Below, one piece after another: positions 25,318-54,621 of a stretch of DNA of 64,000 nucleotides (positions are counted from its first letter, which is position 1; the number at the start of each line of letters is the position of its first letter). The position numbers and the translations under genes were made by a program. The stretch is from Dehalococcoidia bacterium. Lineage in GTDB: Bacteria > Chloroflexota > Dehalococcoidia > UBA2979. The stretch is taken from contig OZ241365.1 in NCBI GenBank assembly GCA_965200555.1, positions 1,768,442 to 1,832,441 of the forward strand, read 5' to 3'. Below the pieces are notes generated by a model. It was not told the DNA's origin. It worked only from the letters and a program-made list of their open reading frames with translations, and did no database searches.

Positions 25318-26688
25318 TCAGCAGGGCGGGAGATCGTCGGTTAGGACATCCCCTTTATCCAGCGCGCGGGGGAGGCAGCCGGTCAACTCGTTCCCGCTGA
25401 GCCATAGCGTCTCAAGGTTCGCCAAGCCGCCGAGTTCGGGCGGGATGCCGCCGCTCAGATCGTTGTCGCGGAGCCTCAAAGACCGCAGGTTCGCCAAGCC
25501 GTCGAGTTCGGGCGGGATGCTGCCAGTCAACCCGTTCCCGCTGAGGCCCAAATACTCCAGGTTCGCCAAGCCGCCGAGTTCGGGCGGGATGCTGCCGCTC
25601 AACTCGTTCAAATCGAGCTGCAACAGCCACAGGTTCGCCAAGCGGCCGAGTTCGGGCGGGATGCTCCCGCTCAACTCGTTCCCGTCGAGCCACAACTGCC
25701 GCAGGTTCGCCAAGCGGCCGAGTTCGGGCGGGATGCTGCCGCTCAACTCGTTCCCGCCGAGCCACAACTGCCGCAGGTTCGCCAAGCGGCCGAGTTCGGG
25801 CGGGATGCTGCCAGTCAACTCGTTATAACCGAGATGCAAAGCCTGCAGGTTCGCCAAGCAGCCGAGTTCGGGAGGGATGCTGCCAGTCAACTCGTTATAA
25901 TCGAGATGCAAAGCCTGCAGGTTCGCCAAGCGGCCGAGTTCGGGCGGGATGCTGCCGCTCAACCCGTTAAAGTCGAGGCCCAGACCGGTGACGCGGGGCG
26001 GCGATCCCCCGATCGTGACGCCTTCCCACTGGTCCATCGGCGTCGCGACGCTCCAATTCGGCACTCTGCCGTCGCCCGCGAGGACGTCGCGGACGGCGAG
26101 CAGCGTCTCGCGGTCCGCGGCCAGCCCCGGGTTGCGGTCCGGCTCCGCCACCGCGCCGCCCGGGCACGACGCCCGAGGCGCCGGCGCCGGCGCCGCCGCC
26201 GAGGGGGACGTGGCGGTCGGCGCGCCCTCGCCGGGAGCGCTTGCGCCGACGAACACCGGCGACGATCGGAGCCATCTGCCTCGGCTGCCCGCCGGGAAGT
26301 AGCGGGAGGACGGCAGGACGCGGTCGCCCCACTCGCCGTCCGTTCCGCGCTCGCTCAACGCGAACTCGATGCGCCCGTCGCCGAGGCGGCGCGCCTCGAT
26401 CCGGACCGTTGGGGCGGGAGCGCTTGCGCCGACGGACACCGGCGACGATCGGAGCCATCTGCCTCGGCTGCCCGCCGGGAAGTAGCGGGAGGACGGCAGG
26501 ATGCGGTCGCCCCACTCGCCGTCCGTTCCGCGCTCGCTCAACGCGAACTCGACGCGCCCGTCGTCGAGGCGGCGCGCCTCGATCCGCACCTCGACGCCAC
26601 TGTTCTGCGCCGCCGCCAGCCCGATGCCGAGGGCGGCGACTGCGCCGAGCAGCACCGCCAGCAGTCCTGCGGTCTTCCCGTTCGCCAT
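25318..26688 (-). CDS. Secreted LRR protein A: signal peptide + 2x 'RIEARRL' module + about 8 plant-type LRRs, ending ...GCLPRALDKGDVLTDDLPPC
   Basis: The probable start is MANGKTAGLLAVLLGAVAALGIGLAAAQ (ATG at 26688 preceded by GGAGG; the listed ORF start at 26796 is an extension). The tandem ~55-aa modules are followed by 24-aa LRRs (LSGSIPPELGRLANLxxLxLxxNE). Confidence 0.85.
   Translation of the reverse strand: MANGKTAGLLAVLLGAVAALGIGLAAAQNSGVEVRIEARRLDDGRVEFALSERGTDGEWGDRILPSSRYFPAGSRGRWLRSSPVSVGASAPAPTVRIEARRLGDGRIEFALSERGTDGEWGDRVLPSSRYFPAGSRGRWLRSSPVFVGASAPGEGAPTATSPSAAAPAPAPRASCPGGAVAEPDRNPGLAADRETLLAVRDVLAGDGRVPNWSVATPMDQWEGVTIGGSPPRVTGLGLDFNGLSGSIPPELGRLANLQALHLDYNELTGSIPPELGCLANLQALHLGYNELTGSIPPELGRLANLRQLWLGGNELSGSIPPELGRLANLRQLWLDGNELSGSIPPELGRLANLWLLQLDLNELSGSIPPELGGLANLEYLGLSGNGLTGSIPPELDGLANLRSLRLRDNDLSGGIPPELGGLANLETLWLSGNELTGCLPRALDKGDVLTDDLPPC
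25330..25940 (-). repeat. Tandem 72-bp LRR coding repeats (about 8 units) in LRR-A
   Basis: Near-identical 72-nt units are visible directly in the sequence (e.g. ...ggcgggatgctgccgctcaactcgtt...caggttcgccaagcggccgagttcggg...). Confidence 0.85.
26268..26601 (-). repeat. Tandem duplication (2 x about 165 bp) encoding the 'RIEARRL' module in LRR-A
   Basis: The two units are nearly identical at DNA level (...gtcgccccactcgccgtccgttccgcgctcgctcaacgcgaactcga...). Confidence 0.85.
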
Positions 26689-26722
26689 GAGGGTGCCTCC
26701 TTGCGGCGCAGGCAGGGGTGAC

Positions 26723-26817
26723 CGCTCTCCGCAAGAGGCCAGTACCGGCGCAGGGCCGCAAGGAGGCGCGAAGCCCCTGCTTGCGTGCTGCGCCATGATC
26801 GGGCTCTTGCGGAGAGC
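26723..26817. repeat. 14-15 bp perfect inverted repeat (cgctctccgcaagag ... ctcttgcggagagc) enclosing about 65 nt in the LRR-A 5' region
   Basis: Arms at 26723-26737 and 26804-26817. It lies within or upstream of the LRR-A 5'UTR. A partially homologous sequence precedes LRR-B. Confidence 0.5.
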
Positions 26818-26893
26818 CGCGCCGAGGCTACCCCGGTCGGGACGCCCGCGGCAAGCGGCGCCTCGCTGAGCCGCGCCCTCGCCGCGCGCGGCG

Positions 26894-27745
26894 CTACGCC
26901 CCGTCGCCGAGGGCGTAGGGGCGGGCGGCGTCGGCGAGGCGGAGGGCGGCGGCGTGGGCGGCGACGTCGTGGACGCGCACGGCGTGCGCGCCGCGCCAGC
27001 TCGCCAGCACGTGGAAGGCCAGCGTCGCCTCCAGCTGGCCGGGCGCGTCCTGCCGCTTCGCGTGCCCCAGCGCCTCGGCGAGGAAGCCCTTGCGCGAGGC
27101 CGAGACCAGCAGCGGGTAGCCCTCGGCGGCCAGCGCGGGCAGCCCGCCCAGCAGCCGCAGGTTGTCGGCCAGCGACTTGCCGAACTCGAAGCCGGGGTCG
27201 AGCCACGGCCGCGGCGCGCCCGCCGCCTCGAGGGCGCGCGCGCGCTCCCGCAGGAATGCGCGCGCCTCGGCCGCCGCGTCGCCGTAGGTCTGGCTGGCCT
27301 CGTAGTGGCGGCGGGGCGCGCCGCGCATGTGCATCGCGATCGGCGTCGCGCCCCACTCGGCGGCGACGGCGACCATCGCCGGGTCGCGGAAGCCCGTCAC
27401 GTCGTTGATCGCGCCCGCGCCGGCCTCGGCCGCCGCCCGCGCCACCTCCGGCGTCCACGTGTCCACCGACACCGCCACGCCCTCGCGCGCCAGCGCCTCG
27501 ACGACGGGCGCGACGCGCTCCAGCTCCTCCTGCGGCGACGGCGCCGCCGCCCGCGACGAGGTCGAGTGCGCGCCCACGTCGACGATCGCCGCGCCCTCGG
27601 CCACCAGCTCGCGCGCCCGCGCGAGCGCCCGCCCGGGCGCGGCCACCGAGGCCGCGATCGGCGAGTCGGGCGAGAGGTTGAGGATGCCCATGATCGCCGT
27701 GCGCCCGGGCGAGCCGATGGCGCGCCCGCCGATCCGCAGCTCCAC
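26894..27745 (-). CDS. Dihydropteroate synthase-like protein (second, divergent DHPS paralogue; FolP2-like)
   Basis: Clear DHPS fold similarity (IMGILNLSPDS..., VDVGAHST, VSVDTW, GAINDVTG, DPGFEFGKS, SASRKGF, VRVHDVA). The N-terminal SPDSPIAAS lacks the canonical SFSDGG-type motif seen in the first copy at nt 1-842. Confidence 0.75.
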   Translation of the reverse strand: MELRIGGRAIGSPGRTAIMGILNLSPDSPIAASVAAPGRALARARELVAEGAAIVDVGAHSTSSRAAAPSPQEELERVAPVVEALAREGVAVSVDTWTPEVARAAAEAGAGAINDVTGFRDPAMVAVAAEWGATPIAMHMRGAPRRHYEASQTYGDAAAEARAFLRERARALEAAGAPRPWLDPGFEFGKSLADNLRLLGGLPALAAEGYPLLVSASRKGFLAEALGHAKRQDAPGQLEATLAFHVLASWRGAHAVRVHDVAAHAAALRLADAARPYALGDGA

Positions 27746-27891
27746 GCGCCACCCTCCGTCCGCCGCCGCCCCGCGGCCCAGTGTAGCCTCGGCGCCCCGC
27801 GCGCCCGCGCCGTGTTGCGCCGCGCGGGGCCGTCTCGTAGCGTCGCGGCGGCAACGGGGCGGCGAGGCGGCGCGAGCCGCGGGGAGCGCGC

Positions 27892-28671
27892 ATGACGGGC
27901 GAGCCGGCGCTCGTGGCGGCCGACTTCACCGCCGGCGAGCTGCGCCTGCTGCTCGCCGACCCCGGCGGCGCGCCGCTGCGGCGCGGTGCGTGGGCGCTCC
28001 CGCCGCTCGCGGACGAGCGCGCGTGGGCGTGGGAGGTCGGCGGGCGCATCGCCGCGCTGTTCGCCGCCGAGGGCTCGCGCCGCTCGGCCCTCGCCGTGGC
28101 CGTCGCCGCGCCCGGCGTCGTCGATCCCGTCGCCGGGCGGCTGGAGCACTCGGCGGGGCAGGAGGCGTGGGACGGCCTCGCCGTGGCCGAGGCGCTGCGC
28201 CGCCACATCGGCGCGCCGGTCGCCTGCGAGGGGCGCGCGCTGGCCGCGCTGATCGGCGAGCGCTGGCAGGGCGCGGCGGCCGGGGCCGACGACGTGCTCT
28301 ACGTCTCGCTGCGCGGCGCGCCGGCGGCGGCGCTGCTGGCCGGCGGCCGGCCCGTGCGCGGCGCGCGCCACGCCGCCGGAGCGCTGCCCGCCATGCCCGA
28401 ACTCGCCCCCGGCCAGCCGATCGGCGACGACGACCTCGAAACGGCGTCGGGGCTGCTCGCCGACGCCGCCGCGCTGCTCGCCCCCGAGCTGATCGTGATC
28501 GACGGCGCCGGCGAGCACGTGGGCCGCCTCGCGCCGCTGCTGCGGCGCGTGCTCGCCGAGGTCGCGCCCGGCCCCGAGGTCGTCGCCTCGGCGCTCGGCG
28601 ACGCGGCGGCGCTCGCCGGCGCGGCGCGCATCGCCGCGACCCTCGCGCTCGAGGGCGAGCGCAAGCCGTGA
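27892..28671 (+). CDS. ROK/ASKHA-fold sugar-kinase-like protein (short, possibly degenerate)
   Basis: Glycine-rich ASKHA-like segments (AVAVAAPGVVDP..., CEGRALAALIGERWQGAAAG..., LYVSLRGAPAAALLAGGRPVRG) are present. It lacks an obvious ROK zinc motif, so the assignment is tentative. Confidence 0.4.
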   Translation: MTGEPALVAADFTAGELRLLLADPGGAPLRRGAWALPPLADERAWAWEVGGRIAALFAAEGSRRSALAVAVAAPGVVDPVAGRLEHSAGQEAWDGLAVAEALRRHIGAPVACEGRALAALIGERWQGAAAGADDVLYVSLRGAPAAALLAGGRPVRGARHAAGALPAMPELAPGQPIGDDDLETASGLLADAAALLAPELIVIDGAGEHVGRLAPLLRRVLAEVAPGPEVVASALGDAAALAGAARIAATLALEGERKP

Positions 28672-29108
28672 GCGCCCTGCCCCCCGGCGGGGGCGCGCAA
28701 GGCGCGGGCGGCGCGGGCGGGCGGCCCTACGCGCTGGCGCTCGACGCCGACCGTCTCGGCACGCTGCTGGGCGCGATCGCGTGGGTGCTGGGGGCGCTCG
28801 AAATCATGCGCGACCGCGGCCACGCCGAGGCCAGCGAGGAGCTGCACGGGCTGCAGCAGTCGCTCGCGCCGCGCCTCGAAGCGCTGCTCGGCGACCTCGC
28901 GGCGGCGCGCGGCGCCGTCGAGGGCGGCCCCGCCGGCGCGGGCCACGGCGAGCGCGTCGAGGCGTCCTACGCGCGCGTGCGCGAGGCGTTCGAGCGCTGG
29001 ATCGCGCTCACCGCCTCGGACACCGCGAGCGTCGCCATCGGCCAGCGCCTCGCCGACCTCGCCGGCGGCGAGGGCGAGGGCGGTGCGGGCGGCGGCGGCG
29101 AGGGGTAG
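28668..29108 (+). CDS. Hypothetical protein
   Basis: The GTG overlaps the upstream stop (GTGA). 146-aa protein-like ORF with Gly-rich termini. Confidence 0.35.
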   Translation: MSALPPGGGAQGAGGAGGRPYALALDADRLGTLLGAIAWVLGALEIMRDRGHAEASEELHGLQQSLAPRLEALLGDLAAARGAVEGGPAGAGHGERVEASYARVREAFERWIALTASDTASVAIGQRLADLAGGEGEGGAGGGGEG

Positions 29109-29115
29109 CGCCCGC

Positions 29116-29343
29116 CTAGTTCGGCGAGGGCGCGTCGCGGTAGCGGGGCGAGAGGCCGGCCAGCGCCATCTCCGCGATTTCGAGCGCCGACTCCACCGTC
29201 TCCTCGCAGTTCCGCGCCTCAATGGCCTCGCCCAGTTCCTTGACGGCGTCGGCCAGCAGCTCCAGTTCGTCTTCCTCGGCGGCCTGCCGGATGGCGCGCA
29301 GCCGCGTCTCGGGGCTGCCCGTGGGGACGATCGTTCCGCTCAT
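29116..29343 (-). CDS. Small helical hypothetical protein, divergent from the DNA methyltransferase gene
   Basis: 75 aa ([75 protein letters not shown]). The remainder of the listed 143-aa ORF is a GC artefact. No HTH is evident. Confidence 0.35.
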
Positions 29344-29392
29344 CTTCGCGCTCCTCGGAATGCGGCGCCTGTGCTTCGTGGATTGTATGTTC

Positions 29393-29422
29393 TGGACACT
29401 GCGCGCGCAACAGGGCAGAATA
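29393..29422 (+). promoter_or_regulatory. Putative promoter in the AT-richer divergent region upstream of dcm (TGGACA-18-AGAATA)
   Basis: Locally lower-GC stretch between the divergent small ORF and dcm. Valid only if dcm starts at GTG 29456 rather than ATG 29387. Confidence 0.2.
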
Positions 29423-29455
29423 CGCGCCCGTGGGAGTGGCGGGGCGGAGGGCGCA

Positions 29456-30487
29456 GTGGGCGGCGACTTCCGCTTCGTCGATCTGTTCGCGGGCATCGGC
29501 GGCCTGCGCCGGGGCTTCGACGCCGCGGGCGGACGCTGCGTGTTCACCTCCGAGTGGGACAGGCACGCGCAGGCGACCTACCGCGCCAACTTCGGAGACG
29601 CCCCCGATCACGTCATGGCCGGCGACATCCGCGGGGTGGCCGTGGCGGACGTGCCCGAGCACGACCTGCTGCTGGCCGGCTTCCCCTGCCAGCCGTTCTC
29701 GATCGCGGGCGTGAGCAAGAAGAACGCGATCGGCCAGCCGCACGGCTTCCGCTGCGACTCGCAGGGCACGCTGTTCTTCGACGCCGCGCGCATCATCGCC
29801 CACCGCCGCCCCGAGGCGTTCGTGCTCGAGAACGTCAAGAACCTCGTCAACCACGACCGGGGCCGCACCTTCCGCGTCATCCGCGAGACGCTGGAGGACG
29901 ACCTCGGCTACCACGTCACGGCGCGCGTGATCAACGCGAAGGGCTACGTCCCCCAGAACCGCGAGCGCATCTTCATCGCCGGCTTCCGCGACCGCGACGA
30001 CGTGAGCCTCGACGACATGTACGTCCCCGACCCCGGCGACGGGCCGAAGCTGCGCTCCGTCCTCCACCCCGAGGACGGCAACGAGGCGCCGGAGCCCCCC
30101 TACACCGATAGCAAGGGCCGCGTCCGCGACCGCTATGCGCTCACCGACCACCTCTGGCAATACCTGCAGGACTACGCGGAGAAGCACCGGCGGCGCGGCA
30201 ACGGCTTCGGGTTCGGCCTCGTGGGGCCGGAGGACGTGGCGCGCACGCTCTCGGCCCGCTACTACAAGGACGGCTCCGAGATTCTGGTGCGGCGCGAGGG
30301 CGGGAACCCGCGCCGCCTGACGCCTCGCGAGTGCGCGCGGCTCATGGGGTTCGACCGGCCGGGCGAGCCGCCGTTCGCCATCCCGGTCTCCGACACGCAG
30401 GCCTACCGCCAGTTCGGCAACGCCGTCGCCGCGCCGGTCGGGGACGCGGTGGCGGCGTTCGTCGTCCGCCGCCTGCGCGGAGGCTGA
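29456..30487 (+). CDS. dcm: DNA (cytosine-5)-methyltransferase (Dcm/M.EcoRII-like); alternative upstream ATG at 29387
   Basis: All C5-MTase motifs are present: [45 protein letters not shown]. The GTG at 29456 has GGAGGG five nt upstream. Confidence 0.9.
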
Positions 30488-30490
30488 GCG

Positions 30491-30943
30491 ATGGCCGACG
30501 TGGTGGACGCCGCGACGCGCAGCCGCATGATGGCGGGCATCCGCGGGCGCGACACGCGGCCCGAACTCGTGATCCGGCGCGGCCTCCACGCGCGCGGCTA
30601 CCGCTACCGCCTCTACTCGCGCCGCCTGCCGGGCCGCCCCGACCTCGCGTTCACGTCGCGCAAGGCGGTGATCTTCGTCCAGGGCTGCTTCTGGCACGGC
30701 CACGACTGCCCGCTCTTCAGGTGGCCCGCCACCCGCGCCGGGTGGTGGCGCGCGAAGATCGAGGCCACCCGCGAGCGCGACCGCGCCGTGCGCGACCGCC
30801 TCGCCGCGATGGGCTGGCGTCAGCTGCGCGTGTGGGAATGCGCCCTCAAGGGCCCGCAGCGCCGCGATCCAGACGCGGTGCTCGACGAGATCGCCGCGTG
30901 GCTCGACGGCGACGAGCCGGAGCGCGACACGAGGGGGGCGTAA
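30491..30943 (+). CDS. vsr: Very-short-patch-repair endonuclease
   Basis: TRSRMMAGIRGRDTRPE...LPGRPDLAF...AVIFVQGCFWHGHDC...GWRQLRVWEC is the Vsr family signature. It lies directly downstream of dcm. Confidence 0.9.
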   Translation: MADVVDAATRSRMMAGIRGRDTRPELVIRRGLHARGYRYRLYSRRLPGRPDLAFTSRKAVIFVQGCFWHGHDCPLFRWPATRAGWWRAKIEATRERDRAVRDRLAAMGWRQLRVWECALKGPQRRDPDAVLDEIAAWLDGDEPERDTRGA

Positions 30944-32202
30944 TGCCGGTCATGGACCTCGGCGACTGGCTCGACGAGCAGATGGAGATCGCGCTGGCCC
31001 CCATGCTGCTTCAGGACGCCGCCGCCGAACACGGCGTGCTCTGGTATGCCAAACGGCTGTCCGCCAACGACACGCAGGCCACAGGGGGCCACCAGGCTGG
31101 CTTCTACATCCCGAAGCGGATCGCATTCCTGCTTATCCCGTCGCTGCACCAGCCCTCCGAACTGAACCCCCGGGTCGAGTTCGAAATGCTGGTCGACAGT
31201 CACCCCGAGGCACGAGAAGTCCGCGCCATCTGGTACAACAAAAAACTCCACGGCGGCACTAACGATGAAGTGAGGGTGACGGGCCTCGGCGGGGCTTCGC
31301 GTTCGCCGCTACTGGACCCGGCTTTGACTGGCGCACTGGCAGTGTTCGCGTTCCATCAAGGAACGCCGCCGAAAGGACTTGTGTGCCATGTCTGGGTCTG
31401 TGAGCACGACACCGAAGCCGATCTCATCGAAGAACGTATCGGACCAGTCGAAACGGGACAGGGGCGACTATGGCCCGATCTCCTCGCTCCGCTCAATCAG
31501 CCGGGCAGGTGCTGGCTTGAACCGGATGAACTCCCCAGAACCTGGCTCGATAACTATCCCACGGGCGAGGAAGTGCTCAGAAAGGTATTGGAGCTCCGGC
31601 CGGAGCGTTCGGCCAGTGCGGATGCCCGTCTCTCGCGTCGTCGTGATTGCGAGGAGGCGCTGTTCTACAGCATCGAGAATGCCATAGAGTTTCCGAGAAT
31701 ACGCGAGCGGTTCTGGAGTTTCGACAGCTTCGGTGAAATCATCGATCACATGATGCCGAGCATTCAGAGGCGCAGATCGCGCTCGGGCAACTCGCTCCAG
31801 CTCCAGATCCGCGAGATTTTCAGAGAGGAAGGATTGGATGAGGGAACTGACTTCTCCTACCAGCCGATTTCGGAGCGGAGAAACCGCCCGGACTTCCTCT
31901 TTCCGAGCGTAGCTGCCTACCGCGATCAGAAATACCCACAGGACCGGCTCCGGATGCTGGCTGTCAAAACCTCGTTGCGCGACCGCTGGCGGCAAGTGCT
32001 CAGGGAGGCCGACCGCATTGGGAAGAAGCACCTGCTCACGCTGGACACAGCAGTTACCGAGGAACTGCTGAACGATATCGATCAAGCGGACATCCAACTA
32101 GTCGTGCCTCGGTCACTGCATCGGAAGTACCCTGATTCGGCTCGGGCGACGCTACAGACGGTGGAGGAATTCATCGGCGAGGTGCGCGCCCTTGCGGGCT
32201 AG
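30943..32202 (+). CDS. Putative type II restriction endonuclease (EcoRII-like: N-terminal B3-like DNA-binding domain + C-terminal catalytic domain)
   Basis: The ATG overlaps the vsr stop (TAATG). The N-terminal LSANDTQATGGHQAGFYIPK resembles the EcoRII-N effector domain. 419 aa. Markedly lower GC than the surrounding genome. Its position next to Dcm+Vsr fits a CCWGG-type R-M module. Confidence 0.6.
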   Translation: MPVMDLGDWLDEQMEIALAPMLLQDAAAEHGVLWYAKRLSANDTQATGGHQAGFYIPKRIAFLLIPSLHQPSELNPRVEFEMLVDSHPEAREVRAIWYNKKLHGGTNDEVRVTGLGGASRSPLLDPALTGALAVFAFHQGTPPKGLVCHVWVCEHDTEADLIEERIGPVETGQGRLWPDLLAPLNQPGRCWLEPDELPRTWLDNYPTGEEVLRKVLELRPERSASADARLSRRRDCEEALFYSIENAIEFPRIRERFWSFDSFGEIIDHMMPSIQRRRSRSGNSLQLQIREIFREEGLDEGTDFSYQPISERRNRPDFLFPSVAAYRDQKYPQDRLRMLAVKTSLRDRWRQVLREADRIGKKHLLTLDTAVTEELLNDIDQADIQLVVPRSLHRKYPDSARATLQTVEEFIGEVRALAG

Positions 32203-33254: not shown

Positions 33255-33299
33255 GCGCCGAGGATACCGCGCCGCCGGGCATCGGTCGGGCGCGCGGCC

Positions 33300-33962: not shown

Positions 33963-34051
33963 CGAGGCGCCCTCCGCGGGCAGCGTAGCGCGCGCGGCCC
34001 CCCGGCGCGCGCGAGGGGCCGCCGGCGCGGGGGTTGCGGGGCGCGGCGGCG

Positions 34052-34082
34052 TTTGCAAGGGCGTCCGCCGCGTTGCTATGTT
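34052..34082 (+). promoter_or_regulatory. Putative sigma70-type promoter for the nitronate monooxygenase gene (TTGCAA-18-TATGTT)
   Basis: A -35/-10-like pair lies about 55 nt upstream of ATG 34140, in the divergent intergenic region shared with the Lon-N gene. Located by eye only. Confidence 0.25.
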
Positions 34083-45756: not shown

Positions 45757-45928
45757 CTGCGCCGTCCGTTCCCGGGGCGGGGCGCGCCCCCGCGTCCGGC
45801 GATGATAGGACTCGCGCGATCCGCGCGGCAACCGCCCCGTCCCGCTCCCCGCCGGGGCGCTATGCTGCGCCGGTACGCGCCCCCCGAACGGCGCGAGGGC
45901 GCGGCCCGCGCGGGGAGGAGGCCACGGG

Positions 45929-46774: not shown

Positions 46775-46787
46775 CCGCGCGCGAGGC

Positions 46788-49721
46788 TCAGGAGGGGCGC
46801 GTCGACTTGCCGCCGTGCACCGTCGGCTCCGCGCACCACTGGCGGCGCAGCGCCCCGAGCGGTTCGAGCACGGCCTCCGGCAGCCCCAGCAGCTCGACGA
46901 GCACCGCGCGGTCGAGCGCCTGCCGCGCCGGGTCGCGGTACGCCTCGTTGGCGGGCAGGAACTCGCGATCGGCGAACGCCTCGAAGATCGCCGCCGCGTC
47001 GCCGAGCTGCGCCTCGCTCAGCGCGCGCACGTCGAGCGCGGGCAGCGACGGCAGCGCCGAGATGGTGATCCGCGCCCGCCCCATGTGCTGACGAGTCCCC
47101 GTCCACCAGAACGCGATCAGCCCGAGCGTCGTGTTGGCCCACAGCGCCAGCGCCTCCTCGCGGCGCGGGTCGCCCTCGACGCGGAAGTTGGGCCACGCCG
47201 TGCCGCCGATCGAGCGCTCCGGCGTGATGCAGGCCGCGAGGCTTTGGGACGCAAGCCCGAAGTCGCGATTGACGTGGAGCCGCGTCGCCGTCTCCCACAC
47301 CGTGATGGCCTGGTCGCGACGGCCCGGACGCACGCGCCCTTCGCGATCGGGCTCCACGGTCAGGCGGCGCTCGCGATCCGTCGCATGAGACCAAAGCATC
47401 GGGTAGGAAGCTGTGCCGCGTCGCCTGATCGCGTCGAAGGGGCCTCCTGCCTTGCCGGTGATCTGCATGTCGTGGAGGCCTTTCTCGCCCAGTGCGCCGA
47501 TCGGCGCGATCGGGACGGGCAACGCCTCCCGCAGGCGCGGCAGCTGCAGCATCCCGCCGCGCAAGGCCATCGCCGCTTCCGCGACATCGGTTTCGCGCAC
47601 CTGCGCGCATCCGCCGTCGGCGAGCGTGGCCCGGACGAAGACCCCCGCGATCTCGTCGCCGGCCCGCAGCAGGCCGGCGCGGTCGTCCGGCGCGTCATGG
47701 ACGAGGCCTCCGATTGCCGCGCCCTCGGCGATGCTGCGGGGGCGGGCGTACAGGTTGGCGTAGAGCGCCTCTGCCTCCGCGACTCCCGCCACGGCAGGCT
47801 CGTCCCGCTTCGTGGCGAGGACCAGCGCCTCGCCAATCGTCGTGTCGGCGGAGAAAGCGCGGGCGGTCTGTCCGGTGGAGGCGATGGTCACCACCGTCAC
47901 GCCCCGATAGTGTTTCGCCAGCAGGTCCCGCGCGGCGGACCACGCCTCGCCCGCCACGACCGTGACCGGCAGCACCAGCGCGAGCACGCCGCCCGGCTTG
48001 ACCTTCGCGTGGGCGAGATCGATGAAGTTCGAAGCCAGGCCCGCGTACCCGTGGCCGGCCACGTCGGTCAGCTGGCGGCGGATGCCGCGGAGCGTCTCCG
48101 CCATCGCCCGCTGCTCGTCCTCGCTGGTGTCGAAGCCGGCGAACGACGAGACGGGTACGGGCCTGCCGTCGATCTCGCCTTCGTGCCCGAGCGGGCGCGT
48201 GAACGGCGGGTTCATGATCACGAGGTCGGCGGACTCGCGCGGCAGCCGGATCTCGTCGCCGCGCTGCGTGTAGTCGCCGACCTCCACCGCCTCGCCGCCG
48301 CCGGTCAGCACGTGCTCGCCGGTGCCGAACAGCGAGGGCTGCGCGTCGCTGGCGATGAGGTCGAGCGAGCCGATGGCGGCGGGGCGGCCCGTGGCCTCCT
48401 CCTGCCGGCCGTAGGGCATCGTGTGGACGCGGGTGCGTCCGAACGTCACCGCCGGGTGCGCGCCCGACAGCATCGAGGCCGTCAGGTGCGTGGCGGCGGG
48501 CATGATGTCGGCGCCGATCAGCGCCTCCTCCATCATCGCACGGTGCAGCGGCTCGTCGTCGCCGCCGGCGCGGCGGTGACGGGCGGCGATGGCGCGGTAG
48601 GCGGCCGACAGCAGGACGCCGGTGCCGCAGGCGAGGTCGGCGACGCGCAGCCCCGTCACCGCCTCGGGGCGGCCCCAGTCCGCGTCCAGCCTCGACACCG
48701 CGAGTTCGGCGAGCAGCGCCGACGACGTGGGCAGCGTGTAGAACGTGGCGAGGAACTTGCGGTCGGTGATCAGCCGCCCGAACATCTGGCCCGCGAGGTC
48801 CTGCGTGCTGGTCACGCCGATCCCGTCCAGCTCGTCCGCGACGGCGCGCAGGCGCTCCAGCACGGCCGCCGCCACGCCCGGCCGGATCGGCCGCAGCACG
48901 TCCGAGGCGATGCGGAAGATCGGCCAGTAGTTGACCTCGGCGAGGATGTAGCGCCACGTTTCCAGCACGCGGTCCTTCGACATCCGGCCGAGCTCGCCGC
49001 GCAGTTCGCCGATCGGGGGGAGGCCGTAGGGACCCGCGAGGCCGGCGTGGAACGTGAGCGCGTTGGCGACGATCGCCATCGCCATCCGCGAGGTCTGCTC
49101 GCCGTCCTCCTGCCGCAGCGCCGCGGCGATGCTCGCCCGCGTATACGGCTGGTCCTCCAGACCGGCGCGCAGCCGCGCGGCGGCCTGCCGCACGCCCTCC
49201 TCGAGGATACGCATCCCCTCCTCGATGCGGCGCTCGGAGAGCGAGGCCTGCTCGATCAGGCCAGCCAGCGCGTCGACGCCGCCGTGCAGCCAGCCGGAGC
49301 GCGGCCAGCGCTCCGGGTCGGCGGGCTCGCCCTCGCGGTGCGTGAAGACGCAGTAGCCGAACCCGGCTCCGGCGATGCGCGCGGCGAGGGCCGCCTGGTC
49401 GCCGCGCAGCGAGAGCGGCGCGCGCACGGCGATCGCCTGCTCGACCGCCTCGCCGTCCGCGTCCACGATCGCGCCGAGGCGGGCGCGCGCGTCGTCCTCG
49501 ACGGTCGCGGCGGGCTCCCACTCGGTCTCGACGACGACGGGCGCGCCGCCGGGGTGGCGGATCACGATGTCGGGGCGCTCGGCGGGATGGCCGCGCAGGA
49601 CGCCGGTCTGCTCCGCGCCGATGCGCCCCGGCTCGCGCCAGCGGGGGTGCTTGCCGCGCAGCGCCTCGGCGAGCGCGGGGTTGAACGCGGGTTCGCTGGT
49701 GCGCGGCATCGCCGCCAGCAT
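46788..49721 (-). CDS. Large (977 aa) gamma-class N6-adenine DNA methyltransferase-domain protein; candidate Type IIG/IIL restriction-modification enzyme or solitary MTase
   Basis: SAM motif I VADLACGTGVLL (about aa 360) and motif IV LVIMNPPFTRP (about aa 520), in gamma order. There is a roughly 350-aa N-terminal domain and a roughly 450-aa C-terminal putative target-recognition domain. No separate REase, S or helicase genes are nearby. Confidence 0.75.
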   Translation of the reverse strand: MLAAMPRTSEPAFNPALAEALRGKHPRWREPGRIGAEQTGVLRGHPAERPDIVIRHPGGAPVVVETEWEPAATVEDDARARLGAIVDADGEAVEQAIAVRAPLSLRGDQAALAARIAGAGFGYCVFTHREGEPADPERWPRSGWLHGGVDALAGLIEQASLSERRIEEGMRILEEGVRQAAARLRAGLEDQPYTRASIAAALRQEDGEQTSRMAMAIVANALTFHAGLAGPYGLPPIGELRGELGRMSKDRVLETWRYILAEVNYWPIFRIASDVLRPIRPGVAAAVLERLRAVADELDGIGVTSTQDLAGQMFGRLITDRKFLATFYTLPTSSALLAELAVSRLDADWGRPEAVTGLRVADLACGTGVLLSAAYRAIAARHRRAGGDDEPLHRAMMEEALIGADIMPAATHLTASMLSGAHPAVTFGRTRVHTMPYGRQEEATGRPAAIGSLDLIASDAQPSLFGTGEHVLTGGGEAVEVGDYTQRGDEIRLPRESADLVIMNPPFTRPLGHEGEIDGRPVPVSSFAGFDTSEDEQRAMAETLRGIRRQLTDVAGHGYAGLASNFIDLAHAKVKPGGVLALVLPVTVVAGEAWSAARDLLAKHYRGVTVVTIASTGQTARAFSADTTIGEALVLATKRDEPAVAGVAEAEALYANLYARPRSIAEGAAIGGLVHDAPDDRAGLLRAGDEIAGVFVRATLADGGCAQVRETDVAEAAMALRGGMLQLPRLREALPVPIAPIGALGEKGLHDMQITGKAGGPFDAIRRRGTASYPMLWSHATDRERRLTVEPDREGRVRPGRRDQAITVWETATRLHVNRDFGLASQSLAACITPERSIGGTAWPNFRVEGDPRREEALALWANTTLGLIAFWWTGTRQHMGRARITISALPSLPALDVRALSEAQLGDAAAIFEAFADREFLPANEAYRDPARQALDRAVLVELLGLPEAVLEPLGALRRQWCAEPTVHGGKSTRPS

Positions 49722-49794
49722 ACCGCGCGGCTTGCGAGGCGTCCGCCGGCGCTCGCCGCTGGCGCGCGGGGCGGGGGCGTGACAGCCTCGGGCG

Positions 49795-50622
49795 GTGGAG
49801 GACTACCTGCTCGCGGCGGCGCTCGGCCTCGTGCAGGCGCTGACCGAGTTCCTGCCGATCTCCTCGTCCGGGCACCTCGCGGTCGCGGGCGAGGTCGCGG
49901 GGGGCGAGGTCCGCGGCCTCACCTTCGACGTGGGGCTGCACCTCGGCACGACGGCGGCGGTGCTGGCGTACTTCCGGCGCGACTGGGCGCTGATCGCCGC
50001 GTCGGCGTGGCGCGACGCGCGCGCGCACGGAGGCGCGGTGCGGCGCTGGCGCTGGCGCTCGCGGCTGGGGCTGCTGCTCGCGCTCGGCTCGCTGCCCGCC
50101 GCCGCCGCGGGCGCGGCGCTCGAACTCGCCGCCGACGGCGGGCCGCGCAGCCCGCCCGTGGTGGGCGCGGCGCTGATCGCGGGCGGCGCGCTGATGTGGG
50201 CGATCGACGCCCGCGCGCGCGCGGGCGGCGGCCTGCGCGCCGTCGACGCCCCCCGCGCGCTCGCCGTCGGCGCGGCCCAGGCCGTCGCGCTCGTCCCCGG
50301 CGTCTCGAGGTCGGCGGCGACGATCTCGGCGGGGCGCGCGCTCGGCCTCGACCGCACCGCCGCCGCCCGCTTCTCGTTCCTGCTCTCCGCGCCCGTCACG
50401 CTCGGCGCCGGCGCCGTGCTCGTGCGCGAGGCCGCCCGGCGGCCGGACGAGGTGGCGTGGGGGCCGATGCTGCTCGGCGCCGCCGTGGCCGCGCTCGCCG
50501 GCCTGCTCGCGATCGGCTGGCTGCTGCGCTTCCTGCGCCGCCGCGGCCTGCGCGTCTTCGCGTGGTACCGCATCGCCCTCGGCGCCGCCGTGCTCGCCGC
50601 CGTCCAGGCCGGCGCGCTCTGA
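49795..50622 (+). CDS. uppP: Undecaprenyl-diphosphate phosphatase
   Basis: LTEFLPISSSGHL..., ALVPGVSRSAATI..., and a polytopic hydrophobic profile are present. GTG start. Confidence 0.85.
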   Translation: MEDYLLAAALGLVQALTEFLPISSSGHLAVAGEVAGGEVRGLTFDVGLHLGTTAAVLAYFRRDWALIAASAWRDARAHGGAVRRWRWRSRLGLLLALGSLPAAAAGAALELAADGGPRSPPVVGAALIAGGALMWAIDARARAGGGLRAVDAPRALAVGAAQAVALVPGVSRSAATISAGRALGLDRTAAARFSFLLSAPVTLGAGAVLVREAARRPDEVAWGPMLLGAAVAALAGLLAIGWLLRFLRRRGLRVFAWYRIALGAAVLAAVQAGAL

Positions 50623-50668
50623 CGCCGCGGCCGCGCGCTACGATGGGGCGCGAACGGAGCACGACGCG

Positions 50669-51460
50669 ATGACGCACGCCGACGCCGCGCCCGACGCACC
50701 CGCCGCCGCTGCGCCCGGCGCCCTCGCCGGGCGCAAGGCGCTCGTCGTCGGCGTGGAGACGGCGGCGGGGGGCGCGATCGCCTCGGCGCTCGGCGCGGCG
50801 GGGGCCGATGTGGCGCTGGCCGTGCTGCGGCCCGACGAGGGCGTGCTGGCGGCGCGCCGCATCCAGCGCGAGCTGCGCGCGCTGGGCCGCGCGGCCTACA
50901 CCTACGCGCTGGACGCGACGCTCGGCCAGAACGCGAAGGTCACGACGCGGCAGGTGGCGAAGGAGCTGGGCGGCCTCGACCTCGTGGTCAGCGCCGCCGA
51001 CGCGCCGCTGGCCGGCCCGCTCGCGCGCACCTCGGAGGCGCAGCTGGGGCAGGCGATGGCGCTCAACTGCCACGCCCACGCCTGGGTCGCGCGCGCCGCC
51101 TTCGACGAGTTCCGCCGCGGCGGGCGCGGCTGCCTGCTGATCGTCACGCACGTGCTCGGCGAGCGGCCCGCGCCCGGCGCGGGCGCCTACGCGCTCGCCT
51201 GCGCCGCCGCGATCGGCCTCGGACGCGCGCTCGCCGCCGAGCACGCCGCGCCCGGCCTCGCCGCCGTCACGCTGCTGCGGGGGGCCGCCGCGTTCGACCC
51301 CTCGGCCGTCGCCGCCGACGGCGGCGGCCTCGAGGCCGCGATCGCGGGCGCCGACGCCGCCGAGGCCCCGGCGCTCGCCCGCCTCGCCACGGAGGCCGCC
51401 GCCAGCCCGCCCGAGGCGGTGACGGGCCGCGTGCTCTCCGCCGCCGCGGACGCGCCGTGA
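50669..51460 (+). CDS. SDR-like Rossmann-fold protein with degenerate glycine motif (possibly non-catalytic)
   Basis: LAGRKALVVGVETAAGGAIASALGAAGADVALAV resembles the SDR N-terminus but lacks a clean TGxxxGIG and YxxxK. Its stop overlaps the GTG of the next gene (GTGA). Confidence 0.5.
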   Translation: MTHADAAPDAPAAAAPGALAGRKALVVGVETAAGGAIASALGAAGADVALAVLRPDEGVLAARRIQRELRALGRAAYTYALDATLGQNAKVTTRQVAKELGGLDLVVSAADAPLAGPLARTSEAQLGQAMALNCHAHAWVARAAFDEFRRGGRGCLLIVTHVLGERPAPGAGAYALACAAAIGLGRALAAEHAAPGLAAVTLLRGAAAFDPSAVAADGGGLEAAIAGADAAEAPALARLATEAAASPPEAVTGRVLSAAADAP

Positions 51461-53415
51461 GCGCCGCGGGCGGCCTCGCCCGCCTTAGCGCCGCGCTGGC
51501 GCTGCTGCTCGTGCTGTCCACCGCCTGCGGGGGCGGCGCGCCGGACGGCGGCGGCGGGCAGGCCGGGCCGTCCGTTCCCTCGCCGGGGCTGACGCAGGCC
51601 GGCGCGGCGGCGCTGATCGCGGTCGGCGAATCCCACGTCTGCGACCTGCGGCGGGACGGGACGATCGTCTGCCGGGGCAACGTCCACGGGGGATGGCCGG
51701 ACGGCGGGGGGTGGGTGCGGATCACGTCGGGGCGAGACTTCTCCTGCGCGCTGCGCGGCGACGGAACCCTCGCCTGCTGGGGCGTCGGCGCCCACGGCGA
51801 GACCGATCCGCCGGACGGGAGGTTCGCTTCCGTGGACGCGGGGCGGCGTCACGCCTGCGCCCTCGACGCCGCCGGCTTCGCGACGTGCTGGGGCCGCGAC
51901 GACGACGGCCGGACGGCGGCGCCTCCTGACGTAGCGTTCGCCTCGATCGGGGCGGGCGACGCCCACGGCTGCGGCCTGACGCCCGGCGGCGAGCTGCGCT
52001 GCTGGGGCGCCAACGGGGACGGACAGGCCGAGCCGCGCCCCGGCCCCTTCCGCGCGCTGGCCGTCGGCGCGCGCCACACCTGCGCGCTGCGAGGCGACGG
52101 GACCGCCTTCTGCCAGGGTTCGGACGGGGACGGCGAGGCCAGCCCGCCGGACACGGCGTTCCTCGCGATCGCCGCCGGCGACGGGCGGACCTGCGGGATC
52201 GCCGCCGGAGGCTCGCTGACGTGCTGGGGCCGCGGCCGGCCGCTCGCGCCGGAGGGCGCGTTCGCGTCGGTCAGCGTCGGACGGTACGAGACCTGCGCCG
52301 TGCGGACGGACGGCCGCGCCGAGTGCTGGCCCCACGGGCCGTCGCCGGACGGCGGGGGCGTGCGCGCAGAGCTCGCGCTGGCGGGCCGCGACCTCGATCA
52401 GCCGGTCGAGCTGTTCCCGTGGCCGGGCGGCGGCCTCGCCGTGGCGGACCGCAGCGGCTACGTCGACGTCTACGCCCCGGACGGGGCGGAGCCGCGGCGG
52501 GCGCTCGACCTGACCGGCCTGATCGCGACCGCCTGTTGCGACCTCGAAAGCGGGCTGCTCAGCGCGGCGCCGGACCCGGAGTTCGGGGCGTTCCCGTACC
52601 TCTACGTCTACTGGACGGCGGACGCGGTCGGCGAAGCGGACATGGCCGCGGCGCGACTCTCCCGCTTCCCGGTCGCCGGCGGGCGGGCCGTGCGCGAGGA
52701 CGAGCTGGTCATCCTCGACATCCCCCTGGCGAGGAAACACTTCGGGGGCGCCGTCCGCTTCGGCCCGGACGGGATGCTGTACCTGTCGCTGGGTGATCTG
52801 GGCAGCATAGAGGACGCGCAGGACCCGGGCACGCTGGGAGGGACGATCGTCCGCATCGACGTGCGGGGCGCGACGGCGCAACGGCCCTACCGCGTCCCGG
52901 ACGACAACCCGTTCGCCGCGTCGCCGGACGCGCGGCCCGAGATCTGGGCCTACGGCCTCCGCAATCCCTGGCGGATGCACTTCGGGCCGGACGGCCGCCT
53001 GTGGGTCGGCGACGTGGGCCAGAACTCGTTCGAGGAGGTGTCGATCGCCTCGGCGGGCGCGAACCTCGGCTGGCCCGCCGCCGAGGGCGACGCCTGCTAC
53101 TGGGGCGAAGACGTCTGCGCGTCCACGACGCCGCCGGCGGCGGCCTACGGCCACACCGAAGGGAACTGCGCGGTCGTCGGCGGCCTCGCGCTGCCCGAAC
53201 CCGACGGCAGGTACGTGTTCGCCGACTTCTGCAGCGGCAGGGTGTGGGCGCTGGAAGGCGGCGACGGGGACTGGCGGATGCGGGAGCTGCTGGACCTGCC
53301 GCTGTCCGTCAGCTCGTTCGGGCGCGGCCACGACGGCGAGGTGTACGTGCTCACCTTCCGCGGCCCCGCGCTCCGGCTGGCGATCGGGCCCGGCGCCGGT
53401 GAGGCCTCGCCCTGA
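51457..53415 (+). CDS. Lipoprotein: about 7 RCC1-like repeats fused to a C-terminal soluble glucose/sorbosone dehydrogenase-like (SGDH/PQQ-dependent) beta-propeller
   Basis: Signal peptide + lipobox (LVLSTAC). Repeated H.C.L..DG...CWG blades are present (HVCDL, FSCALRGDGTLACWG, HACAL..FATCWG, HGCGL..LRCWG, HTCAL, RTCGI..LTCWG, ETCAV). The C-terminal YGLRNPWRMHFGPDGRLWVGDVGQNSFEEVS...GANLGWP is the SGDH family signature. Confidence 0.8.
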   Translation: MSAAGGLARLSAALALLLVLSTACGGGAPDGGGGQAGPSVPSPGLTQAGAAALIAVGESHVCDLRRDGTIVCRGNVHGGWPDGGGWVRITSGRDFSCALRGDGTLACWGVGAHGETDPPDGRFASVDAGRRHACALDAAGFATCWGRDDDGRTAAPPDVAFASIGAGDAHGCGLTPGGELRCWGANGDGQAEPRPGPFRALAVGARHTCALRGDGTAFCQGSDGDGEASPPDTAFLAIAAGDGRTCGIAAGGSLTCWGRGRPLAPEGAFASVSVGRYETCAVRTDGRAECWPHGPSPDGGGVRAELALAGRDLDQPVELFPWPGGGLAVADRSGYVDVYAPDGAEPRRALDLTGLIATACCDLESGLLSAAPDPEFGAFPYLYVYWTADAVGEADMAAARLSRFPVAGGRAVREDELVILDIPLARKHFGGAVRFGPDGMLYLSLGDLGSIEDAQDPGTLGGTIVRIDVRGATAQRPYRVPDDNPFAASPDARPEIWAYGLRNPWRMHFGPDGRLWVGDVGQNSFEEVSIASAGANLGWPAAEGDACYWGEDVCASTTPPAAAYGHTEGNCAVVGGLALPEPDGRYVFADFCSGRVWALEGGDGDWRMRELLDLPLSVSSFGRGHDGEVYVLTFRGPALRLAIGPGAGEASP

Positions 53416-53454
53416 CGCCGCGCCCCTCGCCCCGATGCGCGGCGCCGGGCCGGC

Positions 53455-53499
53455 GCGCGTTCCCGATCGTGAACAGCCGCCCGTATGCTGGGCGCGCCG
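53455..53499 (+). repeat. 44-bp direct repeat, left copy (gcgcgttcccgatcgtgaacagccgcccgtatgctgggcgcgcc) flanking LRR-B
   Basis: It matches 54707..54750 with 2 mismatches. The two copies bracket the LRR-B gene and its 5'UTR. Confidence 0.8.
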
Positions 53500-53580
53500 A
53501 TGGCCGCGGGCGTCCCTACCGGGTAGCCTCTGCCTGCGCCGCGAGGAGGCGCCCTCATCGCGAACGGGAAGACCGCGGGA

Positions 53581-54621
53581 TTGCTGGCGGTGCTGCTCGG
53601 CGCAGTCTCCGCGCTGGGCTTCGCGCTGGCGGCGGCACGGAACAGCGGCGCCGAGGTGCGGATCGAGGCGCGCCGCCTCGACGACGGGCGCGTCGAGTTC
53701 GCGTTGAGCGAGCGCGGAGCGGACGGCGAGTGGGGCGACCGCATCCTGCCGTCCTCCCGCTACTTCCCGGCGGGCAGCCGCGGCGGATGGCTCCGATCGT
53801 CGCCGGTGTCCGTCGGCGCAGGCGCTCCCGCCCCGGCGGTGCGGATCGAGGCGCGCCGCCTCGGCGACGGGCGCATCGAGTTCGCGTTGAGCGAGCGCGG
53901 AACGGACGGCGAGTGGGGCGACCGCGTCCTGCCGTCCTCCCGCTACTTCCCGGCGGGCAGCCGCGGCGGATGGCTCCGATCGTCGCCGGTGTCCGTCGGC
54001 GCAAGCGCTCCCGCCGCCGCGTCCCCCTCGGCGGCGGCGCCCGCGCCGGCGCCTCGGGCGTCGTGCCCGGACGGCGCGGTGGCGGAGCTGGACGGCAACC
54101 CGGGACTGGCCGCGGACGGCGAGCAGCGTCTCGCCGTCCGCGACGTCCTCGCGGGCGACGGCGAAGTGCTGAATTGGAGCGCCGCGCTGCCGATGGACCA
54201 GTGGGAAGGCGTCACGATCGGGGGATCGCCGCCCCGCGTCACCGTTCTATTGCTCACTAGGGCTGGGAACGGGTTGAGCGGCAGCATCCCGCCCGAACTC
54301 GGCCGCTTGGCGAACCTGGAGTGGCTGAGCCTCGACGGGAACGAGTTGAGCGGCAGCATCCCGCCCGAACTCGGCGGCTTGGCGAACCTGGAGTGGCTGA
54401 ACCTCAACGGGAACGAGTTGAGCGGCAGCATCCCGCCCGAACTCGGCGGCTTGGCGAAGCTGGAGGGGTTGTGGCTTCGCGGGAACGGGTTGAGCGGCAG
54501 CATCCCGCCCGAACTCGGCAACCTGGCGAAGCTGGAGGGGCTGAGTCTGCGCGGGAACGCGCTGACCGGCTGCCTCCCCCGCGCGCTGGATAACCTGACC
54601 GACGCGCTCCCGCCCTGCTGA
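53581..54621 (+). CDS. Secreted LRR protein B (paralogue of LRR-A, 4-5 LRRs); the ancestral start codon position now reads ATC
   Basis: More than 90% nucleotide identity to LRR-A over the 5'UTR, signal peptide and the 2x 'RIEARRL' modules. It ends ...GCLPRALDNLTDALPPC. At the position of LRR-A's ATG (after AGGAGG+7) the sequence is ATC (IANGKTAGLL...), so the first ATG is 7 codons downstream (MLAVLLG...). Confidence 0.75.
   Translation: MLAVLLGAVSALGFALAAARNSGAEVRIEARRLDDGRVEFALSERGADGEWGDRILPSSRYFPAGSRGGWLRSSPVSVGAGAPAPAVRIEARRLGDGRIEFALSERGTDGEWGDRVLPSSRYFPAGSRGGWLRSSPVSVGASAPAAASPSAAAPAPAPRASCPDGAVAELDGNPGLAADGEQRLAVRDVLAGDGEVLNWSAALPMDQWEGVTIGGSPPRVTVLLLTRAGNGLSGSIPPELGRLANLEWLSLDGNELSGSIPPELGGLANLEWLNLNGNELSGSIPPELGGLAKLEGLWLRGNGLSGSIPPELGNLAKLEGLSLRGNALTGCLPRALDNLTDALPPC
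53645..53985 (+). repeat. Tandem duplication (2 x about 165 bp) encoding the 'RIEARRL' module in LRR-B
   Basis: Same module as in LRR-A, more than 90% identical in nucleotide sequence. Confidence 0.85.
54277..54600 (+). repeat. Tandem 72-bp LRR coding repeats (4-5 units) in LRR-B
   Basis: Periodic LSGSIPPELGxLAxLExLxLxGNx units. Confidence 0.85.

Follow-up and report, generated by a model that had tools for sequence, protein, structure and literature searches.

Structure of the inverted LRR-A/LRR-B pair

We performed a detailed analysis of a 64,000-nucleotide (nt) stretch of DNA of a Dehalococcoidia bacterium (assembly GCA_965200555.1, contig OZ241365.1, positions 1,768,442 to 1,832,441), referred to below as the window, which carries two related genes encoding leucine-rich repeat (LRR) proteins. 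These genes, designated LRR-A and LRR-B, lie in opposite orientation and bracket a segment of 27 kb, for which an original prediction, made from the sequence, had proposed recombinational inversion. The base composition of the window is 74.7% G+C. The features of the two arms, including the tandem repeats delimited with Tandem Repeats Finder (TRF), are as follows.

25275..26723, minus strand: inverted-repeat arm A, the entire LRR-A cassette including a short common 3′ flank (repeat search, alignment)
25318..26691, minus strand: LRR-A coding sequence, 457 aa from the ATG at 26691 (translation; Pfam LRR_1, LRR_4 and LRR_8); the protein comprises a signal peptide (MANGKTAGLL..AAAQ), two 61-aa modules, a linker, a cap, nine LRRs and a tail ending in ..LDKGDVLTDDLPPC
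26232..26590, minus strand: two tandem 183-nt leader modules of LRR-A (repeat search)
25370..25968, minus strand: LRR array of LRR-A, 8.3 copies of a 72-nt unit (TRF)
26282..26403, minus strand: longest perfect tract (122 nt), arm A side, partner of 53842-53963
25258..25290, minus strand: 3′ anchor of the A locus (33 nt), kept at this locus in all strains and also present 3′ of LRR-B in contig L014
53522..54676, plus strand: inverted-repeat arm B, the entire LRR-B cassette (repeat search, alignment)
53555..54621, plus strand: LRR-B reading frame with two modules, five LRRs and the tail ..LDNLTDALPPC; annotated as protein P0001, 343 aa
53655..54015, plus strand: two tandem 183-nt leader modules of LRR-B (repeat search)
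54265..54578, plus strand: LRR array of LRR-B, 4.4 copies of the 72-nt unit (TRF)
53842..53963, plus strand: longest perfect tract (122 nt), arm B side, partner of 26282-26403

The inverted pair proved to be real. A repeat search returned two matches between the genes, i.e. 26182-26723 with 53522-54063 (542 nt, 91%) and 25982-26233 with 53997-54248 (252 nt, 90%), and the alignment upheld both the coordinates and the opposite orientation. The strongest other inverted pairs in the window, unrelated to the LRR arms, do not exceed 124 nt at 70%. Global alignment of the leader part of the arms (26723-25982 vs 53522-54263; 742 nt each) gave 682 matches, 45 mismatches and 30 gap columns, which corresponds to an identity of 93.8% ungapped, or 90.1% when gaps are counted; in other words, 45 of 727 aligned positions differ and three indels separate the copies. 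The longest perfect tract shared by the arms is followed by tracts of 67, 61 and 56 nt. The LRR arrays (25355-25983 and 54265-54593) match at 78-84% in many shifted registers of the 72-nt unit, and their overall identity between the arms is 78-87%. The by-eye estimate of more than 90% identity was therefore correct for the leader, which makes up two-thirds of the arm, and too high for the LRR arrays.

Alignment and translations revealed that the homology covers a full gene cassette, including all the parts that had been assigned to it: the 5′ untranslated region (UTR) with the ribosome-binding site (RBS), the signal peptide, both modules and the LRRs. The cassette consists of (i) a 32-nt 5′ UTR with the RBS, (ii) a signal peptide (MANGKTAGLLAVLLGAV..AAAQ), (iii) two 183-nt modules, (iv) a Pro/Ala linker, (v) a Cys-containing cap, (vi) an array of plant-type LRRs of 24 residues, which is followed by a protein tail ending in ..LPPC, and (vii) a 3′ flank. 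Upstream, the homology ends 32 nt before the start codon, with the RBS (AAGGAGG) inside and the promoters outside; downstream, it extends ~55 nt beyond the stop codons, and the window LRR-A has a 34-nt deletion in that stretch. The modules follow the consensus RIEARRLxDGRxEFAL..WGDRxLPSSRYFP..GRWLRSSPV, and the two within each gene are 97% alike. A gene-specific substitution is present in both modules of each copy (SRGRW in LRR-A, SRGGW in LRR-B).

The two copies differ in the number of LRRs, for which about 8 and 4-5 had been predicted: nine and five, respectively, were recognized by motif, and these counts, with the TRF copy numbers, agree with the prediction. Pfam matches to both proteins exceed the gathering thresholds (LRR-A: LRR_1 103.6 bits, LRR_4 94.7, LRR_8 76.4; LRR-B: LRR_1 61.0 bits, LRR_4 48.3, LRR_8 43.1). 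Where LRR-A has its ATG, LRR-B carries ATC (53555-53557), and the public annotation begins LRR-B at GTG 53590. Both genes point away from the 27-kb segment, within which their 5′ ends and upstream regions lie. The upstream regions are unrelated beyond the 32 nt, and scans for consensus promoters and terminators around both arms, in DNA of 75% G+C, detected none.

Orientation, gene content and origin of the two loci

Close relatives of the bacterium were found only as ENA and Logan metagenome contigs, which we grouped by the identity of their flanking housekeeping genes to those of the window. They represent (i) conspecific strains (98-99%; L008, L009, L010, L013, L014 and L015), (ii) a sister species (92-95%; L011, a 1.39-Mb contig, and L012) and (iii) a ~90% lineage (L001, whose glucose/sorbosone dehydrogenase (GSDH) gene is 90% identical to that of the window). 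Contigs L013 and L015 originate from the same sample (SAMN12291595). The related contigs are mostly metagenome assemblies of short reads; the contig of the window itself, L011 and L014 (70 kb) are the only ones that look long-read-based. Three proteins of the window, LRR-B, FolP2 and the RCC1-GSDH protein, are identical to P0001, P0233 and P0238, respectively, all of which are on record for one contig of 2,490,836 bp. Protein searches of JGI yielded no relative closer than about 73%. The orientation of the segment was read from the genes on either side of each arm.

23407..25197, plus strand: nadE, outer flank of arm A, convergent with LRR-A
26894..27745, minus strand: folP2, inner flank of arm A, listed as divergent from LRR-A; its product is identical to database protein P0233
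51457..53415, plus strand: gene of an RCC1-repeat and GSDH protein, inner flank of arm B; its product is identical to P0238
54737..55372, plus strand: SDR-like gene, outer flank of arm B

Had a crossover occurred within the arms, the 3′ parts of the LRR genes would still adjoin nadE and the SDR-like gene, and folP2 would have moved to the SDR-like side and GSDH to the nadE side. The relatives display the arrangement of the window. At the A locus, L008 reads from folP2 through an LRR gene (13 repeats) to a convergent nadE, and L009 from folP2 through a fusion of the leader with a PD40 domain to a convergent nadE, both with flanks 98-99% identical to those of the window; in L011, ROK is followed by a folP2 gene oriented away from it, then by a Trypsin_2 gene and a convergent nadE. 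At the B locus, GSDH of L001 is followed by LRR-B (one module, three LRRs) and by downstream sequence of the window type, and L014 is collinear with the window throughout (ilvC-ilvN-ilvB, ilvE, uppP-SDR-GSDH, LRR-B with 13 repeats, SDR-like gene). L013 and L015 stop within the LRR array; their inner junctions are of the window type. The inverted isomer was found in none of the five contigs joining an inner to an outer flank (L001, L008, L009, L011 and L014; 90-99% flank identity). The orientation is the same in all five, and the arrangement of the window is conserved over roughly 10% sequence divergence. The prediction is partly supported: the inversion retains its physical potential, given by the inverse arms and the 122-nt perfect tract, and has no counterpart in the related contigs. 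Of the two grounds named beforehand for giving it up, one fixed orientation among related genomes applies, and a much lower similarity of the copies does not.

Two further traces of inversion were sought within the window and rejected. The GC-skew profile gives no signal at the arms and is uninformative at the scale of the window, and the minus-strand block of genes (~32-49.7 kb) ends elsewhere than at the arms.

The content of the two loci varies strongly between strains. The number of LRRs is 9, 13 or 0 at the A locus and 5, 3 or 13 at the B locus. In L009, the part corresponding to window positions 26233 (right after module 2) to 25300 (19 nt beyond the stop codon) has been swapped for a 1.1-kb PD40 propeller, while the sequence on either side is still ~97.5% identical to the window. 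The sister species (L011, L012) carries an unrelated Trypsin_2 gene instead of the whole LRR gene, followed in L012 by genes for an alpha/beta-hydrolase and a TnsA-like fragment. Behind the same leader, strains with 98-99% identity in the neighbouring housekeeping genes carry from 3 to 13 LRRs or another domain. The ongoing repeat-mediated rearrangement that had been proposed is seen as copy-number change, conversion patches (see below) and cassette replacement, and not as inversion. The start codon of LRR-B also varies: ATC occurs in the window and L001 and ATG in the conspecific L014 and L015, with the frame intact in all of them.

The nadE-folP2 slot (25198-26893) is a hot spot of gene replacement among close relatives. 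Its contents comprise nine LRRs (window), 13 LRRs (L008, L013), leader and PD40 (L009) or Trypsin_2 (L011, L012).

Inspection of the B locus revealed a direct repeat flanking LRR-B.

53459..53491, plus strand: upstream copy of the direct repeat; it opens a 13-codon open reading frame (ORF; 53485-53526) ending just before the LRR-B RBS
54711..54743, plus strand: downstream copy of the direct repeat, which is the true 5′ end of the SDR-like gene

The two copies are identical at 32 of 33 positions (0 expected by chance; ~43 nt with context). The repeat contains the 5′ end of the SDR-like gene, including the ATG and the first codons, and it is kept in L001 and L015. Because it corresponds to the 5′ end of that gene, the LRR-B cassette must have been inserted into the start of the SDR-like gene, or beside a duplication of this start. 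The cassette is already in place at the SDR-like gene of L001 (~10% diverged). We had also considered the direct repeat as a promoter; this label was dropped, the consensus promoter scans being empty.

The B locus of L014 has a more complex structure. On the 5′ side of LRR-B (L014 positions 11999-12025), 27 nt that perfectly match the complementary strand of the 3′ end of nadE replace part of the upstream direct repeat, and on the 3′ side (13737-14030) there are about 180 nt of A-locus-type 3′ flank and about 100 nt of other sequence. Either sequence has been transferred from one locus to the other, or a larger, permuted unit was duplicated in the first place; neither simple inversion nor simple conversion would yield this arrangement.

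Probable exchange between the LRR loci and its explanation

Several observations point to a transfer of sequence between the two loci. At the positions where window A and window B differ, the L008 allele of the A locus alternates between A-like and B-like states in tracts, the 48 sites falling into 16 runs (permutation P=0.007); for instance, eight A-like sites in succession precede six B-like ones. The A locus of L013 and the B locus of L015 share 317 identical nt, including a variant present in no other sequence; despite this tract, they differ at 22 of 114 sites of the signal segment, and in their common sample the signal-segment types look reciprocally exchanged between the A and B loci relative to the window. 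The modules of paralogues within a genome are as alike as those of orthologues from different strains (95-98%). Between strains, the leader is only 88-94% identical, compared with 98-99% for the flanking housekeeping genes. It is likely that LRR-A and LRR-B undergo sequence conversion.

The closest model is known from Salmonella enterica, in which tufA and tufB (1185 nt, in inverse orientation, 12 differing positions) co-evolve by conversion (PMC5485169, Paulsson et al. 2017). About half of the conversion events of certain kinds between inverse genes are accompanied by inversion of the interval, as quoted in that paper from Hughes 2000 (PMC5485169); the link between tuf conversion and inversion is likewise cited from Hughes 2000 in PMC6735719. 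The LRR genes resemble tufA/tufB in being two copies of ~1.1-1.2 kb in inverse orientation on one chromosome, with patch-wise exchange and with an interval that a crossover would invert. They differ from the tuf pair in (i) their divergence, with 45 mismatches and indels in 742 nt, as opposed to 12 in 1185 nt, (ii) the remaining third of each arm, which is a repeat array of different length, (iii) the interval, 27 kb as opposed to 762 kb, and (iv) the evidence, conversion of the LRR genes being deduced from sequence comparison, with no inverted isomer seen. When the properties of such a pair were examined in turn, the two homologous copies were found in inverse orientation on one replicon, and their four longest perfect tracts (122, 67, 61 and 56 nt) all exceed the minimal processing segment of RecA recombination, which is a few tens of nt. 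Exchange between the copies was apparent from the mosaic pattern (P=0.007) and the 317-nt tract, both in short-read metagenome contigs, and an inverted isomer was lacking in the five flank-to-flank contigs.

We consider it probable that LRR-A and LRR-B are an ordinary inverted pair of paralogues, fixed in orientation, that evolves in concert in the manner of tufA/tufB. The arms would represent copies of one complete cassette for a Sec-secreted protein, placed in two fixed slots, one between nadE and folP2 and the other between GSDH and the SDR-like gene. The duplication would be old, because the B copy is present in the ~10%-diverged lineage (L001). The leader may be kept ~94-97% alike through patch exchange (gene conversion), presumably of the RecA type, among these copies and other leader-bearing paralogues, and the 72-nt LRR arrays may grow and shrink through unequal recombination or slippage. 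In the A slot, the entire C-terminal domain would be replaceable between the conserved leader and the conserved 3′ anchor. A crossover in the same homology could invert the 27 kb; if such isomers arise, they would be rare or transient, with the orientation of the window maintained.

Some of the data weigh against concerted evolution at a fixed orientation. Assemblers give the majority path, and a minority inverted isomer would not show in short-read contigs; moreover, such assemblies can contain chimeric joins wherever identical repeats exceed the read length. The differences between the window leaders are spread evenly over the codon positions (14/13/13) and include 24 non-synonymous and 12 synonymous codon changes, which is unlike tight homogenisation. 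L013 and L015 share a sample, and their origin from a single genome is not provable. Mosaicism could in part stem from old alleles reshuffled between strains, and not between the loci of one chromosome.

If the copies were passively diverging paralogues, related by common descent, with purifying selection acting on the leader, no exchange and no recombinational consequence, then the 45 differences in 727 leader positions, the three indels, the substitutions that each gene carries in both of its own modules (SRGRW in A, SRGGW in B) and the fixed orientation would all be expected. This explanation is unlikely in view of the modules, whose paralogues are no more diverged than the orthologues although the duplication is older than the ~10% split, and it accounts neither for the tract-like pattern of alleles (P=0.007) nor for the 317-nt identical A/B tract with its private variant in one sample, nor for the A-locus-specific 3′ flank at the B locus of L014. 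An artefact, in which a single gene was assembled in duplicate or sequences were wrongly joined at a repeat to give a false inverted pair, is extremely improbable. Misassembly is classic in repeat-rich genes and the source is a metagenome-derived contig of 2.49 Mb, yet dozens of positions, indels and the repeat number distinguish the copies, each of them has unique flanks on both sides, and at least six other assemblies independently contain both loci with these flanks.

The possibility that the locus is an active recombinational switch was also considered. The segment of 27 kb, with both promoters and starts, would flip or trade patches, LRR-B would be a silent cassette, and the intact start and signal peptide of LRR-A would become coupled to alternative LRR arrays, resulting in antigenic or adhesive variation. 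Parallels for such variation are the sap homologues of Campylobacter fetus and pilE/pilS. In C. fetus, the sap genes encode surface-protein homologues with a conserved 5′ region that face outward from an invertible, promoter-bearing segment, and recombination in the conserved 5′ region swaps the expressed 3′ part; there is one promoter, the segment is small and the 5′ regions are near-identical. The LRR homologues likewise have a conserved 5′ region and face outward from a segment. They differ in having a separate upstream region for each copy, 27 kb of housekeeping genes between them, 5′ regions that are not near-identical, and no second isomer in the five flank-to-flank contigs. A switch would explain the position of both 5′ ends, turned to the segment with homology starting at the RBS, the ATC of LRR-B, which is found in the window and the ~10%-diverged L001 with the frame nonetheless open in both, the apparently reciprocal swap of signal-peptide types in SAMN12291595, and the extreme variation between strains in repeat number and domains. 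We nevertheless regard both the switch and the antigenic variation that it would entail as quite improbable. No junction-spanning contig has the inverted isomer; LRR-B has an ATG in the conspecific L014 and L015, and there is therefore no dedicated silent copy; each copy has a distinct upstream region; and the leader arms are only ~94% identical and thus not homogenised like known switches. No recombinase domain was detected among the 54 window ORF translations searched against Pfam. The locus also lacks the structure of a site-specific inverton (short border repeats of ~10-40 bp and a nearby recombinase gene), its arms being whole genes of 1.1-1.4 kb.

Inversion between paralogues has been demonstrated for hsdMS of Staphylococcus aureus, where the repeats are nearly perfect (1,748 bp) and the event is reversible, alters the phenotype and is recA-independent (PMC6778178, Guerillot et al. 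2019). The same study treats inverted repeats of >1 kb as generic inversion hotspots and such inversions as undetectable by short reads (PMC6778178). The LRR arms are similarly >1-kb inverted repeats built of paralogous genes; they are of lower identity, and no isomer was found. As an inversion candidate of conserved orientation, the pair adds little to this well-known class of hotspots. Its greater value is as a natural case in which secreted repeat proteins of uncultured Dehalococcoidia evolve in concert and have domains replaced; the more interesting content of the locus is the hypervariable slot between folP2 and nadE, the leader-anchored domain swapping and the uncharacterised module.

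A more far-reaching explanation, which we judge unlikely, is that the leader (~0.55 kb: RBS, signal peptide and two beta-modules) and the short 3′ anchor serve as portable recombination handles in a symbiont lineage. It is similarly doubtful that C-terminal binding domains (LRR, PD40, RCC1 and others) would be swapped, resized and re-targeted among slots by means of such handles, with LRR-A/LRR-B as one node, and just as doubtful that double crossovers, or inversion and re-inversion, would shift the signal-peptide and start segments reciprocally, so that an ATG (expressed) and an ATC (silent) state would alternate. If true, this would constitute programmed diversification of surface proteins in uncultured Dehalococcoidia by general recombination, with no dedicated recombinase.

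The leader family and the genes of the segment

The 61-aa leader module (RIEARRLxDGRxEFAL...GRWLxSSPV) was found in 1-3 copies behind a signal peptide in 107 database proteins, whose C-terminal parts contain LRR, RCC1, LysM, DUF1524 or no recognised domain. Fusion with PD40 occurs in L009 and in a third gene of the window.

12650..14839, plus strand: gene with the leader architecture (signal peptide and two modules; 65-75% nt identity), fused to a PD40/TolB-type beta-propeller
12762-13086: leader modules of this gene

A scan of the GTDB species representatives identified Dehalococcoidia metagenome-assembled genomes (MAGs) as the nearest carriers of the leader (~48% identity), and the nearest named relative of the family is a protein of a 'Chloroflexi bacterium' MAG. 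Profile searches of Pfam, NCBIfam and PDB revealed no relatives of the leader. AlphaFold2 (53 homologues) predicts that each module is a small beta-domain (predicted local distance difference test score, pLDDT, 93-98), and Foldseek against PDB returned nothing better than E=0.03 (template modelling score, TM, 0.19). The module has a confidently predicted fold without a relative in Pfam, NCBIfam or PDB.

From their architecture, the leader genes probably encode a hypervariable, uncharacterised family of secreted or surface proteins, with a common N-terminal unit and interchangeable binding domains, and the LRR proteins may bind host or surface ligands. Sponge-associated Chloroflexi encode eukaryote-like repeat proteins (LRR, WD40/PD40, ankyrin, TPR) (PMC6306507, Bayer et al. 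2018). The proteins described here are similar in that they are putatively secreted repeat proteins of Chloroflexi/Dehalococcoidia, and the window may derive from a sponge, as names of contigs starting with 'PANK22-1' suggest Caribbean sponge metagenomes; the combination of the leader (signal peptide and 61-aa modules) with interchangeable C-terminal domains does not appear in that paper. If the organisms are host-associated, the LRR genes are candidate determinants of surface variation directed at host or phage.

The ~200 nt located 5′ of LRR-A (26692-26907, minus strand) are 73% conserved 5′ of another leader-bearing gene, which encodes P0005 (L002, 9822-10000). The latter belongs to a more distant relative, where it lies in another context on a contig of 656 kb. 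The conserved upstream stretch has no Rfam match, and it may constitute a conserved 5′ regulatory region.

The segment between the arms was analyzed by comparison of its ORF translations with Pfam.

26724..53521, no strand assigned: segment between the arms, 26.8 kb
within 26724..53521: folP2 (minus), ROK (plus), Dcm-Vsr-EcoRII (plus), luciferase-like (minus), PIN (minus), leuA-ilvC-ilvN-ilvB (minus)
within 26724..53521, continued: FAD monooxygenase, bPH, ilvE (minus), 977-aa methyltransferase-like (minus), uppP (plus), SDR (plus), RCC1 and GSDH (plus)

The domain searches confirmed the predicted content of the segment, i.e. folP2, a restriction-modification (R-M) island, PIN, the ilvBNC-leuA operon, the 977-aa methyltransferase and uppP. 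The R-M island (29222-32202, plus strand), which encodes Dcm, the Vsr endonuclease and an EcoRII-type restriction enzyme, has a G+C content of about 0.67, compared with 0.75. Synteny between L011 and the window stops at the edge of this island (~29.1 kb) and, on the other side, slightly past nadE (~23.4 kb). The 977-aa protein (46788-49721, minus strand) shows weak similarity to methyltransferases (PADLOC mad2 4.7e-12, MTase_II 6.8e-9; Pfam MTS 0.009), and its gene is missing in the conspecific L014 and L015, which carry a Lactamase_B gene together with a small ORF at this site.

A search of Rfam gave no matches. The 91-nt tRNA-His that ARAGORN placed at 54820-54910 (plus strand), within the SDR-like frame, is probably a false positive, since Rfam has no tRNA there at the gathering threshold.

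Protein P0108 differs from the window FolP2 by one residue (E107A). The window contains a second folP gene in inverse orientation (3-842, plus strand; 26894-27745, minus strand), 26 kb from the first; the two share about 65-70% nt identity and are too diverged for recombination.

Two tandem paralogues encoding LRR lipoproteins without leader modules (4723-6735 and 6742-8456, plus strand) share common segments that are 90-94% identical. The second of them has lost several LRRs and is split across two frames (6742-7209, 6798-8456), the result of pseudogene formation or of a frameshift introduced in sequencing. Immediately 5′ of this gene pair is a small ORF (4159-4656) with RCC1 repeats.

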